From a virus: a stretch of 64,000 bases of DNA. Both the position numbers and the translations under genes were made by a program. Shown here one piece after another: positions 7,836-60,050 of this stretch (the stretch's first letter is position 1; each line of letters starts with the position of its first letter). The notes under the pieces were generated by a model. That model saw only the letters and a program-made list of their open reading frames with translations. It made no database searches and had not been told where the DNA came from. The DNA is taken from IMG/VR virus record IMGVR_UViG_3300032296_002019, positions 1 through 64,000 of that record; one strand, 5' to 3'.

Positions 7836-9131
7836 ATGAAACATTTACTAATTGAGAACAAAGGTGAATTAGATATTGCATCTTTGATTTTGCTGGGGGC
7901 CTCTACCAAGAGAGGGGACTCTAGCAAGATAGGATTCTTTGGATCTGGTAACAAGTATGCTATTGCTACTCTGATCAAGTACGGTATCAATTTTGAAATA
8001 TATTCTGGAGACAGGAAGATTGATATCACTACTGAAGATGTTATCTTTAGGGATATGAAGTTCAAGAAGATTATCATAGATGGTAAAGAGACTTCTCTGA
8101 CTACAAGCATGGGACCACAATGGGAACCTTGGATGGCTATTAGAGAGTGGGTATCAAATAGTCTTGATGAAGGAGGTTACAACATGATAACCGATACAAG
8201 TATTATATCAGGTCGTGATGGATATACTAGGTTCTTTGTAGAACATCATCCCATGATATCAGATCTAATAGAGAACTGGGGATCTTACTTTGCATTTGAA
8301 AGAGAAGACTCTCTGTTTAAATATGAAGAGAGCAATGTCTATCCTCAAACAGATCCTGAGAATAATGTAGTTCTTTACAGAAAAGGAATAAGATGCTACT
8401 TTGATAAAGGAGTGCAATCTTTATACCAATATGATATAGATTCATTTGATATAAATGAAAGTAGATTAATTGATAGTTTGTATAGTGCTGAGCTAAAAGT
8501 CTCTAAGCTATTAAACAAATGTGATAATGTGGAAGTGCTTAAGAGTATACTAAAGAATGCCTTTATAGAAGACAAGTGGGAAGCCCGTTTGCCATGGAGA
8601 TGGGGAACAGGAGGACCATTGAACAAAGCATGGAGAGAAGCTATAGATGATAGATGCATCATTGTAGATACTGTATCAGGATACTACTTGGATATACAAA
8701 ATTCTAGAAAGTGTTATATAGTATCTCTTGAGATGGCGTTTGCAATAAGGTCTGCCTTCCCAGATGTTACCATATATGGTATAGATGATTCTGGTAATTC
8801 TATAGGATACAAGGCAACAGTGACAACTCCTAAGCAAGACTTCATACTTAAGGAAGTTATAAAATTCTGCGGAGAGTGTGGGTACTCTGTAGAATACCCA
8901 TTAGAAGTTGTAGACTTTGAAGACAGAGATGTGTTGGGACAGGCTCATAAAGGTACCATACTATTATCTTCTAAGATATTTGATATGGGAAGAAAGCAGG
9001 TTGCTTTGACTATCATAGAAGAGAATGAACATCTCAAGACAGGATATAAAGATTGTTCAAGAGCATTTCAAAATCACTTGTTCAATCTATTCCTCACAGA
9101 GAAGGAAGAAAGATTCGGATATTTTCTATAA
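7836..9131 (+). CDS. circularly permuted GHKL (HATPase) ATPase with C-terminal zincin-like domain
   Basis: IENKG, LGASTKR..IGFFGSGNK (G boxes) precede AIREWVSNSLDE (N box); C-terminal IIEENEHLKTG. Confidence 0.75.
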   Translation: MKHLLIENKGELDIASLILLGASTKRGDSSKIGFFGSGNKYAIATLIKYGINFEIYSGDRKIDITTEDVIFRDMKFKKIIIDGKETSLTTSMGPQWEPWMAIREWVSNSLDEGGYNMITDTSIISGRDGYTRFFVEHHPMISDLIENWGSYFAFEREDSLFKYEESNVYPQTDPENNVVLYRKGIRCYFDKGVQSLYQYDIDSFDINESRLIDSLYSAELKVSKLLNKCDNVEVLKSILKNAFIEDKWEARLPWRWGTGGPLNKAWREAIDDRCIIVDTVSGYYLDIQNSRKCYIVSLEMAFAIRSAFPDVTIYGIDDSGNSIGYKATVTTPKQDFILKEVIKFCGECGYSVEYPLEVVDFEDRDVLGQAHKGTILLSSKIFDMGRKQVALTIIEENEHLKTGYKDCSRAFQNHLFNLFLTEKEERFGYFL

Positions 9132-9864: not shown

Positions 9865-10287
9865 ATGGGAACTCCACTACTGCATGCCCGATCCTCAGTG
9901 AGGAAGTATGGCGGCGAAATCAAAGACTACATTGCTATTCACAGATGGTTTGACTCTACTAAAGGGAACATGCCTGTATTCAAGCATCGTGCAATCCTAC
10001 ACAATTCATTTGGTATGCTACTAGCAGAGCAAGTGTTTGGAGATTACATTACCAACTCAGAAGGTAAGATGGTAGAGGTACGACAGATTGCTTATGACCA
10101 TATCTTTGAAGACTGTGGGTTTGTTCCTACAATAGAAGATTGGCTAAAGCATTTACAAGTACAGCCTTGGATGATGAAAGCAGATGAAACAAGAAAGGTA
10201 AAAGCTGCATTAGATAAACCAGAATTAGAAACAAACAAAAACACTTTAGGGAATGAAACTGAAAGATTACTTGAAACAACTTTCTGA
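9865..10287 (+). CDS. DUF6915-like protein
   Basis: PLLHARSSVRKYGG..DYIAIHRWFDSTK..HRAILHNSFG..EQVFG..HIFED..PTIEDWL. Confidence 0.8.
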   Translation: MGTPLLHARSSVRKYGGEIKDYIAIHRWFDSTKGNMPVFKHRAILHNSFGMLLAEQVFGDYITNSEGKMVEVRQIAYDHIFEDCGFVPTIEDWLKHLQVQPWMMKADETRKVKAALDKPELETNKNTLGNETERLLETTF

Positions 10288-10942
10288 TGAAGGTAAAGAC
10301 ATAAGAATAACATGGGACGGAGGTAATGATAGTGGGTCCTACTATGCCTATATAGGAGGGAAAGAATTATCATATGGAACTCATCTAGAGGAGATCCTTA
10401 CTCGCATAGCAGATGATCATTTAGATTATGGCAGTTGGGCAGGAGATTTCTATGCTAGTGGGGAAGTTTGTTACAATCCACGTTCCGGGGAGTTTGAAGG
10501 AGATAGCAGGACTTCTGTATCAGAATCTGCAACTACAGTTTCTGACATAGAAATAGTAGTTCCAGAAGCTATTAATTTTGATTCAATATCTATAGACCTA
10601 GAAGGAAATAGTGAAGATGGAGTATCATGTTCCTTCAAACTTAATGTAATGAATGGTCCTGTATTTGAAGAGCATCGTGATATAGAAAGAGAGGTTGAAG
10701 ATCAAGTAAAAGAAAGAGTATGCACTATATTAGATAAAGTTTGTTTTGACAAAGAGAGGTATAGTGTTTATGATAGTGACTCTATATCTAGAGATGAAAT
10801 GGAACTAGTAGTAAAAAATGGAGTTAGGAGTCTGGTGCACAAAATAGAAAGTATCTCTTTCTATTACGATATTAGAGAAGAAGATATGATCACTTTCGAA
10901 ATATCAGACGATCTAGAAATAGACCATGAGAATTTATACTAA
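10253..10942 (+). CDS. acidic DUF6878-like protein, paralog A
   Basis: ITWDGGNDSG; SWAGDF; NGPVFEEH. Confidence 0.65.
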   Translation: MKLKDYLKQLSDEGKDIRITWDGGNDSGSYYAYIGGKELSYGTHLEEILTRIADDHLDYGSWAGDFYASGEVCYNPRSGEFEGDSRTSVSESATTVSDIEIVVPEAINFDSISIDLEGNSEDGVSCSFKLNVMNGPVFEEHRDIEREVEDQVKERVCTILDKVCFDKERYSVYDSDSISRDEMELVVKNGVRSLVHKIESISFYYDIREEDMITFEISDDLEIDHENLY

Positions 10943-10956
10943 ATAAATTTAATCAA

Positions 10957-11622
10957 ATGAATCACACTTTTCAAGAATGCTTAGATAAAACTATAGAGTT
11001 TTATTCTAGCCCAGACATAAGAATAGAATGGGAAGGGGGAAACGATGATGGATGTTATGAGCTATTTGTTGATGGTAATCGTATAGCAGATGCTTATAAG
11101 AATGATTTTACTAGTGATCTTATAAGTAACTTTGCTCAATCAATAGGACACTTTTCTTTTGCTGGAGACTTTATTTGTTCTGGGCAAGCTGAGTATGATA
11201 AATCAGAAAATGCTTTTGTAGGAAATGATTCGTATGAAGAGAACAAAGAGTTCTGTTATCCTATTGATCTTACTTATAAAATATCTCCGGACTTATGGTT
11301 TGATAGTATAAAGATTTCAGTAGATGGATATGGTGAAGGTGTAAATGCGGAAGTATTCTTAGTAATAAAAAACGGTCCTGTAAGCGAAGACCATATTAAT
11401 TTTGAAAAAAGTTTAAAAGTGTCTATAGAAAATGACATTCAAGATTCATTATCTAGGAGAGTAGACGAACTATCCGAAATCAATAGTCTATATATAGATT
11501 TTGAGACAAGCATGGAAAACCTGAATAAAGATGAGAATGGAAACTATATTATATTTTTAGACCACGTCTACTGTTATATGTATGACGGAGAAGAAAGACG
11601 AGTTTTAATTCCTATTTCATAA
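10957..11622 (+). CDS. acidic DUF6878-like protein, paralog B
   Basis: IEWEGGNDDG; SFAGDF; NGPVSEDH; collinear with paralog A. Confidence 0.65.
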   Translation: MNHTFQECLDKTIEFYSSPDIRIEWEGGNDDGCYELFVDGNRIADAYKNDFTSDLISNFAQSIGHFSFAGDFICSGQAEYDKSENAFVGNDSYEENKEFCYPIDLTYKISPDLWFDSIKISVDGYGEGVNAEVFLVIKNGPVSEDHINFEKSLKVSIENDIQDSLSRRVDELSEINSLYIDFETSMENLNKDENGNYIIFLDHVYCYMYDGEERRVLIPIS

Positions 11623-11638
11623 TCACAAAAAAAAGAAC

Positions 11639-12388
11639 ATGAAACAGTTCGATTTCACAAAAGCAAGTTACACAGTTTCTGGGGTATCAGGGATGACCCT
11701 AGACCAAGCTATGAGGCTTTGGAAAACAAAGTATCCCACTTATGAACACTTTAGAAAGGCTGTAGTAAAGTCAGAGTCTTTGAAAGAGTTCGGTAGTTTT
11801 GTAGAAGAGATGTGGGATTCTGTCAATCCCATCACTCCTAAGGAAGCATTTGAACAAAAGAATGCAGAGATGAGAAGGATCTACTTTGATTGTATCGGTG
11901 TTGTAGAATTGTTCAAAGCTGCTAATCCAAAGCTACTTGACAAGAAAGTTATCAAGAAACTTCGTAAGCGTTGGGATGAGAAGAATGATCCTTATGACTA
12001 TGAGTTTGAAGACGTCTATGAACTTTATTCTGTAGATCCTAATGAGTTGTACAAAGGAACAGAAACAGACAATTCAAGATGGAGAGCTAGGAGTAAGTAT
12101 ATAGCTGTAAGGTGCTGGTGTACTACAACCAACAGAGAGTATTGGATATATGTGCCAGAAGAAGCAGCATTGGTTGAAGGTATGAGAACATGGGAAGATG
12201 ATGAGAAGAAGAAGTATGATGCTGTAAAAGCTATTGCCTGGACTATTAGGATAGACGTTACTAATCCTAGAAGGATCTATAGGCAAGGAGATATTATCAT
12301 AGCCCAAGAGAGTAATGATTCAACTAAAGTTACTCCTTATCATCTAACCAAGGATCAGTACTTATCTCTTATGTATTCTGAAACCTAA
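11639..12388 (+). CDS. DUF6745-like protein
   Basis: NAEMRR..IG; VRCWCTTTNREYWIYVP; AVKAIAWT; C-terminal RQGDII. Confidence 0.7.
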   Translation: MKQFDFTKASYTVSGVSGMTLDQAMRLWKTKYPTYEHFRKAVVKSESLKEFGSFVEEMWDSVNPITPKEAFEQKNAEMRRIYFDCIGVVELFKAANPKLLDKKVIKKLRKRWDEKNDPYDYEFEDVYELYSVDPNELYKGTETDNSRWRARSKYIAVRCWCTTTNREYWIYVPEEAALVEGMRTWEDDEKKKYDAVKAIAWTIRIDVTNPRRIYRQGDIIIAQESNDSTKVTPYHLTKDQYLSLMYSET

Positions 12389-12393
12389 AAACT

Positions 12394-12867
12394 ATGAGGC
12401 GTAAAAAAAGTATTCCTCGTCATTACTATCATATATTCCGCATAGAGTATTCATATAATTCAGATAGTCTCTATGCCAGACCAGATGCAGTTCTTATAAT
12501 TCTATCAGAAGATGAACTATCTCATATACGTCAATTAGGAGAGATGGTAGAAAATAATAAGCTATTTATTACAGGAGAGTTTGATTATAGAATTTCAATA
12601 AACTTTCCAGTAGAAGTAGAAAAAGTATGGTATGAAGACGGATCTTTAGAGGATGAAAGCGATTCCTATAAGAGTTTGTATATACCTGCTGGGGGTAGGA
12701 TAGAGATACGGGGACATGATCCCTGGGTAAACTTCAGTATGTATGAACATGATAACTGTTCAGACATTTGTGAGGCGGAGATGTCTCTAGACAAATTTAA
12801 ACTTATGGAGTTAGAAGACTGGGACTTCATAGATAAAATAAGTTTTCCAAAAGAAGAAGAGTTTTAA
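12394..12867 (+). CDS. hypothetical protein
   Basis: ORF track. Confidence 0.7.
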   Translation: MRRKKSIPRHYYHIFRIEYSYNSDSLYARPDAVLIILSEDELSHIRQLGEMVENNKLFITGEFDYRISINFPVEVEKVWYEDGSLEDESDSYKSLYIPAGGRIEIRGHDPWVNFSMYEHDNCSDICEAEMSLDKFKLMELEDWDFIDKISFPKEEEF

Positions 12868-12879
12868 AAAATTATTTAT

Positions 12880-12887
12880 TAACTTTG
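12880..12887 (+). promoter_or_regulatory. Bacteroidota-type -7 promoter element
   Basis: TAACTTTG (TAnnTTTG) 26 nt upstream of 12914. Confidence 0.55.
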
Positions 12888-12913
12888 TTTTTAACAATCA
12901 AAAACCAATAAAA

Positions 12914-13210
12914 ATGGCAAACAAAAAGTCCACAAAGAAAGAAGCATCAAAGAAAGCTAAGCGTCTGTGTCTCGGAGAAGGAGAACACGTTTCAGCAGAG
13001 ACAGGTCAAATGATCAAGCACATCCTCAGTTCTAAGTCAGACATTGAGTATGAAACGACTAATGACAGCATTACCTTCATGCTTAAAGACATGGGTGTTC
13101 TCACTCACGATGAGCATGATAGGATGGTGTTCGAATCAGGAAAGTACTCTTCCTACAATCAGGTAGAGTTCAATCCTTTGGATGAAACCATCTCTAGGGT
13201 GTTTGATTAG
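12914..13210 (+). CDS. small His-containing beta protein (usual DUF6745 partner type)
   Basis: LGEGE..H..LTHDEH..GKY..NQVEFNP..RVFD. Confidence 0.7.
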   Translation: MANKKSTKKEASKKAKRLCLGEGEHVSAETGQMIKHILSSKSDIEYETTNDSITFMLKDMGVLTHDEHDRMVFESGKYSSYNQVEFNPLDETISRVFD

Positions 13211-13233
13211 TTTTGGTTGATTGTTTATGTTTG

Positions 13234-13263
13234 AAGGGGGCTGGGTAACACTAGCCCCTTTTT
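13234..13263 (+). terminator. intrinsic terminator
   Basis: AAGGGGGCTGG-GTAACA-CTAGCCCCTT followed by Ts. Confidence 0.75.
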
Positions 13264-57743: not shown

Positions 57744-60050
57744 CTAATGGCCGTCCCTTAGGTTATGTGCCAAAGCAGGAGGAGCTACTAAATCTAATGA
57801 CAACTTGGTAGTATTTTCCATTTTGTCTTGAACAATCTTAGAAGCTTCTTCCACTATACCCTCTTCCACTTCTATAACCAATTGGTCATGAATCTGCGCC
57901 ACCACCTGTCCTTTCATTCCTCTTTTTTTAAATTCCCTGTTTATTTCAATAGCGGCACGATTTACTATAGAAGCTGCTAAACTCTGGATTTGATAGTTCA
58001 TTCCGTTGTTTAATCCATTCTTGTAATCTCTCACCATATTTAACACAGTATCTTTATCTAGCTGATCTTCTAGTTTCTTCTGAAACTTCCACTCTAATAG
58101 CTTGTCTCCAAACTTTTCATAAAGATATGAAACTTTTGGCAAATGGCGAATTCTTCCTACTTGTGTTTTTATATATCCATTTTTTTTAACAAATTCTTTA
58201 GATGTTTCCATCCACTTTTTAAGATTAGGGAATCCATCTAAGTATCCATCTATAAGCTTCTCTGCATCTTCTGTAGACACGTCTATGCTCTTTCCTAGTG
58301 CGTAAGCTCCCATCCCATATGGAATACCTAAAGAATATGCTTTAGCCTTCTGTCTAACGTTATTAGCCATCTTCTTTAGATAATTGGGGGCTTTTTTATC
58401 TGGAGAATACTGGTCTAGCTTTTCTGTTTTTATTGCAATGGTAGAATAGAAATCCCATCCATTTCTAAAAATATCTTTCAATCCCTCATCATCTGCCACA
58501 TGAGAAAATACTTTTGGCTCTAGAGACTCATAATCACAATCTATAAAAATATTACCTGGTTTAGATATAAAGAATCCTCTAATCATGTTGGTATACTTTA
58601 TGACTATAGGATCATCTTCGCCATCTTCTTTAGGCCTCGGTAACTGTTGTGCATCTGACCCATACCTGCCTGATACGGTAGCATGTTGCTTATAATAGAA
58701 ATAATATAACCCATCCTCTACTTTATCTAAAAATCTATCCATATAGGTAGATTTTATCTTAAGAAGTTTATTGTAGATTCTTAGATTCTTAGCCCACTCG
58801 TGTTTGTCAGATATAGATTGAATAAACTCATCATCAAACTTATCTTTCCCCTTATCTGTGGTAGATATCGGCTTCATCCCTAGTACTTCAAAAGCAATAC
58901 TACCCATGTGATCTTTTGACTGTATATTGAAGTATTCTGATTCCTGACTCTCTTTCCACAATCCCATGCTAATTTTTATAGCCGCTTTCTCATCTAGTTG
59001 ATCTATATTTCCAGTTGTCAAGTATTCCTTGACAGTTGAATCCGGTAACTCACTTATATTTTTAGCAGTTATAGAGTATTTACCAGATTTCTCAGAAACA
59101 GGTAGCGGTAAATTATAATACTCTACTAATCTTTGAGCATAGGTACCTTTATTGCTAGGCGGGAACTTCTCTAAAGACTTATCAACAATCCACTCTTTTA
59201 CTGCTGGATTTTTTAATAGTTCTGATATAACTAGCTTTTTATATGATTCTAGATCAGCTATTATCTCTTCTCTGGCCTTATTCATTAAATCTACGTCTAC
59301 CATAACTCCATTACTCTCCATTGGGATAGTAACTTCTTTATATAGAGGCATTACTTCGTCTTCGAAGAAGAATTTTTCCAGTCCCTCCCTTACAAGCTTT
59401 TCATAGTAATAGTTGTATACTCTAAGAGTTAAATCAGTATCCGCACAAGCATACTTAGATAGTATTGGGAGATCGGCTTTCCATATCTCATAGTTCTCTT
59501 TTGTAGTAGTGCCTCCATTAGATTTTATAGATTCTTTTAGGAGAACCTGTTCTTCGTTAGCCTCCTTCTCCATATCCAAACCTAATTCAGCTTGAATAGC
59601 TATCGCTATGTCCTTCAATCCAAATGATCCTCCGAATCCTTCCCCAGCGCCTTCTTCAGATACAGTGTGAACAAGCAATATAGTATCTGCATGTATGTGT
59701 GGAGTTATGTCTATTCCGTAAAAACACTTAACGAATCTAGAATCAAACGATAAGTTGTGGCCTATTATCTTTTTACTACAGAGAAGAGATATAACTTTCT
59801 TAGCCAATTCATGACAGCTTTCTCCGTATATATTACTTTCAACAAGCTCTCCGTCTTTGTATATCATTGTGGGCATGTAGTACCCTACCCCTACTTCTCC
59901 TGAAACTGATAGCCCTATTACACTTCCCTTTCTAGGATTTAAAGATGTGGTTTCAGTATCAAAAGCAATTATATCGTTTGCTTTTATATGCCTAACCATC
60001 TCCCTCAAAGTATCCGGAGTGTCTACCGTTATGTACTTTTTGTCTTGCAT
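57744..60050 (-). CDS. polA: family A DNA polymerase with 3'-5' exonuclease
   Basis: DTETT exonuclease; TVSGR; motif A DYESLE; motif B RQKAKAYSLGIPYG; motif C IHDQL. Confidence 0.95.
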   Translation of the reverse strand: MQDKKYITVDTPDTLREMVRHIKANDIIAFDTETTSLNPRKGSVIGLSVSGEVGVGYYMPTMIYKDGELVESNIYGESCHELAKKVISLLCSKKIIGHNLSFDSRFVKCFYGIDITPHIHADTILLVHTVSEEGAGEGFGGSFGLKDIAIAIQAELGLDMEKEANEEQVLLKESIKSNGGTTTKENYEIWKADLPILSKYACADTDLTLRVYNYYYEKLVREGLEKFFFEDEVMPLYKEVTIPMESNGVMVDVDLMNKAREEIIADLESYKKLVISELLKNPAVKEWIVDKSLEKFPPSNKGTYAQRLVEYYNLPLPVSEKSGKYSITAKNISELPDSTVKEYLTTGNIDQLDEKAAIKISMGLWKESQESEYFNIQSKDHMGSIAFEVLGMKPISTTDKGKDKFDDEFIQSISDKHEWAKNLRIYNKLLKIKSTYMDRFLDKVEDGLYYFYYKQHATVSGRYGSDAQQLPRPKEDGEDDPIVIKYTNMIRGFFISKPGNIFIDCDYESLEPKVFSHVADDEGLKDIFRNGWDFYSTIAIKTEKLDQYSPDKKAPNYLKKMANNVRQKAKAYSLGIPYGMGAYALGKSIDVSTEDAEKLIDGYLDGFPNLKKWMETSKEFVKKNGYIKTQVGRIRHLPKVSYLYEKFGDKLLEWKFQKKLEDQLDKDTVLNMVRDYKNGLNNGMNYQIQSLAASIVNRAAIEINREFKKRGMKGQVVAQIHDQLVIEVEEGIVEEASKIVQDKMENTTKLSLDLVAPPALAHNLRDGH

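Follow-up and report, generated by a model that had tools for sequence, protein, structure and literature searches.

Two catalogued gene pairs joined in one phage cassette, with a hairpin segment relocated between neighboring proteins

The locus examined in the present study raises the question of why an RQGD motif, typical of the N-terminus of a small His-rich protein family, is found in the product of a neighboring gene. It occupies positions 9865-13263 of IMG/VR virus record IMGVR_UViG_3300032296_002019, a 99.5-kilobase (kb) record with a CheckV completeness of 57%, of which the first 64 kb (64,000 nucleotides [nt], hereafter the window) were analyzed. Six genes, designated A to F, are encoded at this locus on the plus strand. 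A preliminary description of the sequence had proposed that they unite two gene pairs, DUF6915 with DUF6878 and DUF6745 with a small RQGDV protein, in one metal-dependent module; the open reading frames (ORFs) and motifs that it quoted are present as claimed. On balance, we favor the view that the locus is a conserved cassette in which the two pairs have been joined, that it lies in an early or replication-side region of the phage, and that D and F form a complex with a relocated hairpin. The DUF6878/DUF6915 pair and the pair of a small His-rich protein with DUF6745 are already catalogued. What is new in the sequences described here is that both pairs are joined, that B and D have diverged beyond the reach of Pfam, and that the hairpin has been relocated.

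Relocation of a hairpin from F to D

Gene D (11639-12388, plus strand; 249 amino acids [aa]) scored 14.1 bits against Pfam DUF6745 (PF20530; E 0.029, 41 residues), which is below the cut-off of 27. The domain is carried by none of the 120 listed D homologues, and none of the 742 homologues (protein clusters) of the D family has a Pfam label. However, a comparison by hhalign of the D family with six reference DUF6745 proteins that pass Pfam (E 1e-11 to 4e-30) gave 94.7% (E 5.8e-8) over 103 columns, covering D residues 68-207, and D shares the core N.E.RR ... TT.REY..YVP ... A(I/V)AWT with genuine DUF6745 proteins. The proposed DUF6745 likeness of D is thus borne out by profiles, although not by the Pfam domain itself, and D is, from these alignments, a divergent DUF6745-like protein. 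Since the Pfam DUF6745 model was matched in 2 of 401 sampled Bacteroidota genomes, it hardly detects D of the cassette type.

Gene F (12914-13210, plus strand) encodes a His-rich protein of 98 aa with the motifs GEGE, KH, THDEH, NQVEFNP, and VFD. Alignments identified in F the family motifs GE..GH.H, H.EH, G.Y, Q.E..P, and a C-terminal V.D, which are shared with the ordinary RQGDV small proteins (phrog_27831) in the form GE.(T)GH.H, (T)H.EH, G.Y, Q.E(F/Y).P, and C-terminal V.D. The relation was strong in hhalign (99.9%, E 8e-32); F lacks the first 28 columns of the ordinary proteins and aligns from column 29 onward. The phrog_27831 profile matched F at E 0.0099 versus 3e-13 for ordinary forms, and Pfam gave no match for F. 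Judged by this alignment, F belongs to the RQGDV small-protein family but is truncated at its N-terminus. An exhaustive hidden Markov model (HMM) search with the F profile yielded 1292 relatives of two kinds: short forms of 81-92 aa, which align to the profile from their first residues, and long forms of 100-130 aa, which have ~25 extra N-terminal residues. The fetched long forms all start with (I)YR[HQ]GDV, apart from one with RNGD, one without the motif (P0341), and one with an HNH-like in-frame insertion.

The segment that F lacks has a counterpart in D. An insert of ~26 residues in D, N209-Y234 (12263-12340, plus strand), carries RRIYRQGDIIIAQ and matches the N-terminal hairpin of the ordinary RQGDV small proteins. 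In the alignment of short and long D proteins, the insert of the window, NPRRIYRQGDIIIAQESNDSTKVTPY, lies after the conserved AIAWTxRI and before the conserved HLTKxQYLxLMYSET at the C-terminus, with RQGD at D residues 215-218. The preliminary description was therefore correct in finding RQGD in D and not in F, but not in assigning it to the C-terminus of D; it is part of an internal insert that a conserved tail follows. Phage D proteins have the insert, whereas Cytophagales D proteins, of 193-197 aa, do not. The string ERIYRQGDII of the insert is nearly identical to ERIYRHGDVI, the start of small proteins of the cassette type.

The distribution of the motif is complementary. In all 64 distinct phage pairs the hairpin motif is in D and not in F (R[HQN]G[DE] occurs in 0/64 phage F proteins, and F of the window has no R[HQ]GD), and in all seven bacterial pairs it is confined to the small protein. 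The suspected relocation was thereby shown, at the level of aligned sequences: in the phage cassette, the N-terminal (I)YR[HQ]GDV hairpin has moved from F into the loop just before the conserved C-terminal tail of D. Most simply, each cassette would need one hairpin, which either subunit may supply. If so, the C-terminal region of D and the N-terminus of the small protein would be neighbors in a complex; the complementary pattern is strong, though indirect, evidence that D and F form one.

We consider it likely, from this pattern, that D and the small protein formed an ancestral complex, with the C-terminal region of D beside the N-terminus of the small protein, and that phage D and F now form an obligate heterocomplex around a His/Glu site, in which F would receive its missing hairpin in trans from D. 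This permutation may have arisen when the tail-hairpin junction was duplicated in tandem and two deletions followed. On another explanation, no such complementation takes place: F would be a truncated barrel that acts alone or as a homo-oligomer, and the insert in D would serve another end, for example as a decoy or as a regulatory mimic of the N-terminus of the small protein. Forms as short as 81-92 aa are indeed abundant (487 clusters in one search and many more by HMM), and the proposed contact between D and F is drawn from sequence comparison. However, each of the 64 phage and seven bacterial cassettes has exactly one hairpin, ERIYR[HQ]GD[IV]I is nearly the same in D as in the cassette-type small proteins, and a short F lies downstream of an insert-bearing D in every fetched locus in which both genes were called. 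We regard the decoy or mimic as improbable.

Pairs of the ordinary type provide the comparison for D and F. Immediately after the ordinary small gene, six of eight viral loci have a genuine DUF6745 gene (Pfam E 1e-11 to 4e-30), and the stated pairing of DUF6745 with the RQGDV small protein was thereby found to be real. Examples of this pair (phrog_27831 with PF20530, phrog_31813) include viral loci L117-L125 and the Microcystis phage MaMV-CH01, in which its members are ORFs 200L and 198L. In these pairs the small gene comes first and has its own hairpin, and DUF6745 is longer (257-501 aa). In contrast, D comes first in the present cassette, is Pfam-negative, and bears the hairpin, whereas F is without it. 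We also noted that the genuine DUF6745 genes beside ordinary small genes have long simple repeats in their N-terminal halves (L118:4320-5825, L119:4314-5615, L120, and L121), which show in other frames as ORFs of the SPDRSPDR or ALGAAL type.

The conserved residues of F are G23, H36, H65, E67, and H68, and its GE..GH.H / H.EH cluster probably binds metal. F was predicted to be all-beta, and the insert in D to form two strands of a beta-hairpin, in a read-through model of D and F that is described below. A likeness of F and the ordinary small protein to cupins is confined to motifs (G.x4.H.H; GDV...P.G). PDB sequence searches with the F and ordinary profiles returned no match, and fold searches with the D-F model, the match lists of which were dominated by D residues 82-236, returned no cupin.

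The A-B half and conservation of the cassette

Gene A (9865-10287, plus strand; 140 aa) was confirmed as a DUF6915 protein. Pfam PF21866 matched it with E 2.5e-41 and 140.4 bits, against a cut-off of 27 bits, and covered profile positions 3-102 of 102; among PHROG families the match was phrog_8143 (E 9e-42). DUF6915 was also matched in 12/12 aligned A homologues, and the invariant columns of the alignment are H7, D21, H26, D30, H41, R42, H46, H79, E82, and D83. This set of His, Asp, and Glu residues probably represents a metal site. An HD or HEPN domain was considered for A and found no support: the 12 homologues gave no weak Pfam matches, and the R-x3-H spacing is unlike the Rx4-6H of HEPN. 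In the window, the end of A overlaps the start of B by 35 nt, and B lies 3' of A in nearly all related loci, in which the two overlap by ~14 nt or abut. This overlap or abutment suggests translational coupling.

Gene B (10253-10942, plus strand; 229 aa, isoelectric point [pI] 4.27) carries the motifs WDGGNDSG, YGSWAGDF, and NGPxxEH. Gene C (10957-11622, plus strand; 221 aa, pI 4.15) carries WEGGNDDG and is 30% identical to B by BLASTP (E 7e-18), in agreement with the earlier account of B and C as tandem acidic paralogs. Among phages, the second copy was found in the closest relatives only; the bacterial cassettes described below have one to three copies. The further claim that B and C resemble DUF6878 was only partly upheld. 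At E<=10, Pfam did not match B, C, their N-terminal halves, or 13 homologues, and the result was the same for the B-like proteins of Cytophagales. Nevertheless, the AlphaFold model of B (predicted local distance difference test [pLDDT] 90.4), which is predicted to consist of two beta-beta-alpha-beta-beta units forming one sheet covered by two helices, had a single Foldseek match at E<=0.001 in BFVD. This was A0A6J5LAB0, a viral protein of 231 aa named 'DUF6878 domain-containing protein' (E 1.2e-5, prob 1.0, but with a template modelling [TM] score of only 0.43). Against the PDB the model had no clear match; the best, an MHC-I-like platform with Z 5.5, is within the noise range of the tool.

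In hhalign, 71 N-terminal halves of B and five plasmid DUF6878 proteins were co-linear over ~95 columns (75.7%, E 2.4e-5), a value that falls to 23% with a 15-sequence profile. The N-terminal half of B and plasmid DUF6878 have a common order of helix, DGGGDSG loop, helix, and [PY]GW.. loop, and the Gly/Asp loops are conserved in B. On the combined strength of these alignments and the predicted fold, B and C are regarded as divergent, enlarged relatives of DUF6878 that fall below Pfam detection.

DUF6915 was found on 225 plasmids, of which 123 are typed as conjugative, and none of the 225 has a D match. In five of six inspected plasmid loci, DUF6915 is preceded at a distance of 1-10 nt by an annotated DUF6878 gene, which agrees with the statement in the preliminary description that the two pair on mobile elements. 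The neighbors of this plasmid pair include ssb, DUF736, and strawberry-notch helicase genes. As in the present cassette, the pair on alphaproteobacterial conjugative plasmids, such as pDSHI01 of Dinoroseobacter shibae and pTB1 of Sphingobium, consists of a DUF6915 protein with the same invariant His/Asp/Glu set (40-52% identity) and a small acidic neighbor that bears two loops, the first D-G-G-G-D-S-G and the second [PY]G-W-x-[NG]-[ND]; in both settings, mobile DNA carries the two as tightly coupled genes. However, DUF6878 comes first on the plasmids and DUF6915 first in the cassette. Furthermore, B is ~100 residues longer than plasmid DUF6878, has a second beta-beta-alpha-beta-beta unit and a tandem duplicate, and is not detected by Pfam, and the pair is joined to D-F, which the plasmids lack.

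DUF6915 also occurs in 127 isolate phages, all without D, including phages of Streptomyces, Bacillus, and Gordonia as well as phiM12 and RsoM2USA. Five of these loci were inspected (L101-L105: phiM12, MrDarsey, Bmoc, RsoM2USA, and Kudefre), and in four of them DUF6915 is followed by an acidic protein of 165-210 aa with W.QYTPYFNDGE.C.F, the label of which, phrog_9564, was confirmed for phiM12 and Bmoc. By sequence, phrog_9564 is a third kind of DUF6915 partner without a detectable relation to B; that B might be its relative was excluded by an hhalign value of 0.2%.

Searches of viral contigs identified 21 loci through the B family and 129 confirmed loci through the D family, 80 of which were fetched, and ~100 loci were fetched in total. 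When all genes of the window were compared with these loci by tblastn, the order A-B-(C)-D-(E)-F was found in practically all loci whose flanks were long enough, most often as ABDF (43 loci) or ACDF (14 loci). All four genes were present in >95% of loci with intact flanks. Identities across the viral loci extend down to ~45% for A, 30% for B, 40-50% for D, and 35-60% for F. The genes that flank the cassette in the window were detectable in its five or six closest relatives only.

A genome search with the ordinary small protein found ten loci in Cytophagales/Bacteroidota (L106-L115, including Thermoflexibacter ruber DSM 9560 and Xanthocytophaga flavus), seven of which have the whole cassette. 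It comprises DUF6915 (E ~1e-31), one to three B-like genes with WDAGGD, D, and a small protein of 109-112 aa. The four families, their order, and the tandem B paralogs are the same as in phages. However, D has no insert, the small protein carries a YRHGDV hairpin, A is longer (198-227 aa), and the setting is chromosomal, beside leuS, murA-like, and uvrD-like genes that differ from the phage flanks. The proposal that two gene pairs are joined in one cassette is thus supported by co-occurrence across both viral loci and Cytophagales.

Each pair is also found alone: plasmids carry DUF6878 with DUF6915, and other phages carry DUF6745 with the RQGDV small protein. An alternative explanation is accordingly that A with B and D with F are independent two-gene units that merely lie side by side, their synteny being that of one phage lineage plus a transferred block. 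The 127 isolate phages in which DUF6915 occurs without D and with another partner (phrog_9564), the 225 plasmids without a D match, and the small protein and DUF6745 pairs without A or B all fit this explanation. Moreover, among loci with similar surroundings, two keep A-B without D-F (L012 and L019) and one keeps D-F without A-B (L050). It is nonetheless difficult to reconcile with an A-B-D-small protein order that is common to phages and Cytophagales chromosomes despite unrelated flanks, and with the presence of the four genes together in nearly all loci with intact flanks. We consider independent units an unlikely, though serious, alternative to a joined cassette.

The D-F junction and the surroundings of the cassette

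The preliminary description had treated the whole of 9865-13263 as one system. A, B, D, and F form a core, but gene E (12394-12867, plus strand; 157 aa), to which no family was assigned, is a variable insert between D and F. Its homologues were found in the closest relatives only (L002, L003, L027, and duplicates), and E is a passenger in an insertion hot spot, outside the core of the cassette. In approximately half of the loci, the D-F spacer is -1 to 18 nt (values of -1, 1, 3, 5, 9-13, and 18) with varying frames, and this short spacing is consistent with translational coupling. In the remaining loci it is 250-2100 nt and holds whole genes. These encode two GIY-YIG/NUMOD homing endonuclease families, a DUF4241-like family, and a 111-aa family present in 22 loci; examples of such inserts are L037:3075-3653, L006:5287-6003, and L035:2843-3328, among others. 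One ordinary small protein, P0313 (281 aa), has an in-frame HNH-endonuclease-like segment between the RQGDV hairpin and the GE.T.H.H strand, the very junction that is split in the phage cassette. Because of this insertion, the hairpin-barrel junction seems prone to invasion.

Genes of T4-like phages are known to be split by the insertion of homing endonuclease genes, as in T4 genes 39/60 and in nrdA of Aeh1, which is split by mobE. The present cassette resembles these cases in that one structural unit would come from two neighboring genes, the products of which must reassemble, and in that GIY-YIG homing endonuclease genes occur at the junction in related phages. It differs from them in that the segment has moved into a different partner protein and in that many junctions have no endonuclease.

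The close spacing raises the further possibility that D and F are one polypeptide produced by read-through or frameshifting, such that nothing is split. In many loci the two genes touch or overlap, and 15 loci have them in one frame. However, neither their spacing nor their relative frame is constant, they are separated by one or two stop codons, not always of one kind, and whole genes of up to 2.1 kb, homing endonuclease genes included, lie between them in approximately half of the loci. We regard a single polypeptide as extremely improbable. Natural D-stop-F sequences from ten same-frame loci, translated with codes 4 or 6, were used for a structural model, which was predicted to be compact (pLDDT 75.6, predicted TM score [pTM] 0.75) and which counts neither for nor against the binding of D to F. 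The model had no clear match in the PDB; WGR or beta-propeller pieces were aligned with D at Z 4.1-4.6, in the noise range.

In the window, the gaps between neighboring genes from A to F are -35 to +46 nt. A GC-rich, terminator-like hairpin with a U run lies at 13233-13263 (plus strand; hairpin 13233-13262), with a predicted RNA fold of -24.1 kcal/mol and z = -4.68; none of 200 shuffles was equally stable. The reported packed run that ends at a terminator is therefore real, but it does not start at A, since gaps of 2-18 nt continue upstream to ~7836. The product of the gene at 7836-9131 (431 aa, phrog_8203) has an N-terminus that weakly resembles the ATP-binding part of sacsin/GHKL proteins. 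The gene is also upstream of the cassette in close relatives, and a homologue lies directly downstream of A-B in L019 (8573-9895). The sequence TAACTTTG at 12880-12887 was considered as a separate promoter for F but found no support; the motif is no rarer than chance in this AT-rich DNA. It resembles the Bacteroidota -7 element and lies 26 nt before the start codon of F, in the one sizeable spacer of the run.

The GC content of the window is ~35%. The source phage is probably large, uncultured, and associated with a host in Bacteroidota (Flavobacteriia or other). The host is probable because the family-A DNA polymerase encoded at 57744-60050 (minus strand) is 56% identical to the polymerase of the Flavobacterium myophage vB_FspM_immuto. 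Flavobacterium phage isolates of the vB_FspM_immuto kind gave no tblastn match to A, D, or F.

Possible roles of the cassette

PADLOC models (E<=0.1) matched none of A, B, C, D, E, or F, and NCBIfam gave nothing useful for the cassette proteins. When profiles of A, B, D, F, and the ordinary small protein were searched against PDB sequences, nothing meaningful emerged, and ESM Atlas searches matched only unnamed viral or archaeal clusters. Within the literature library that was searched, there was no paper on DUF6915, DUF6878, DUF6745, or the RQGD motif.

We tentatively propose that the cassette may be an early metal-dependent module that helps a mobile element to become established, for example through counter-defence or the processing of nucleic acids or nucleotides; this is a possibility rather than an expectation. 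Establishment was suggested because the DUF6878-DUF6915 pair adjoins ssb and DUF736 genes on conjugative plasmids. DUF736 families are included in the supplementary gene-family table (file 3) of a paper on leading regions (PMC11541004), and the plasmid context thus points to establishment or counter-defence. A fuller version, in which all four components make up a metal-dependent system, common to phages, Bacteroidota, and (in the form of its two halves) conjugative plasmids, that acts early after DNA entry against host immunity or processes a nucleic-acid or nucleotide signal, with D and F in an obligate heterocomplex through the moved hairpin, appears rather doubtful to us.

Several points weigh against the interpretation of the cassette favored here. 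No solved structure is close enough to A, B, D, or F to indicate their chemistry; the best Z scores were 4.6-5.5, and Foldseek found nothing in the PDB. The metal sites are inferred from conserved residues only, and the F part of the fused D-F model is predicted with moderate confidence only (pLDDT 58-83). The loci that retain A-B or D-F alone indicate that the halves of the cassette are separable, and a four-part machine is not required. In addition, most of the phage loci probably belong to one broad lineage, so the gene order reflects descent in part and the counts are not independent. The cassette has no PADLOC match, and the terms 'metal-dependent', 'anti-defence', and 'nucleotide-signal processing' used in the preliminary description are unsupported so far, their basis being the conserved His/Asp/Glu residues and the genomic context. 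Finally, chromosomal copies beside housekeeping genes fit a cellular enzyme at least as well as counter-defence.

The whole cassette on Cytophagales chromosomes, flanked by housekeeping genes, points to a cellular enzymatic role. The cassette may accordingly be a cellular-type enzyme or cofactor-handling module with an auxiliary metabolic or repair function in phages and no role in counter-defence. The chromosomal copies beside leuS, murA-like, and uvrD-like genes are not in prophages, the conserved His/Asp/Glu and Gly-rich motifs are like catalytic or ligand sites, and the failure of PADLOC to match the cassette agrees with such a role. However, neither sequence nor fold searches found a known enzyme family or fold resembling the cassette proteins, and the component pairs are strongly linked to phages and conjugative plasmids. 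We consider a cellular module conceivable, but not the probable answer.

The four families are widespread, with DUF6915 in 127 isolate phages and on 225 plasmids and with 742 D and 1292 F clusters or relatives. Because the A-B half lies near ssb and DUF736 on conjugative plasmids, it may help incoming DNA to become established. The relocation of the hairpin, as read from the sequences, provides natural evidence that a DUF6745-type protein may bind a small His-rich protein, and it indicates which surfaces of D and F should meet. The cassette is also a clean example of a structural element that moved between the products of adjacent genes, at a junction repeatedly invaded by homing endonuclease genes.

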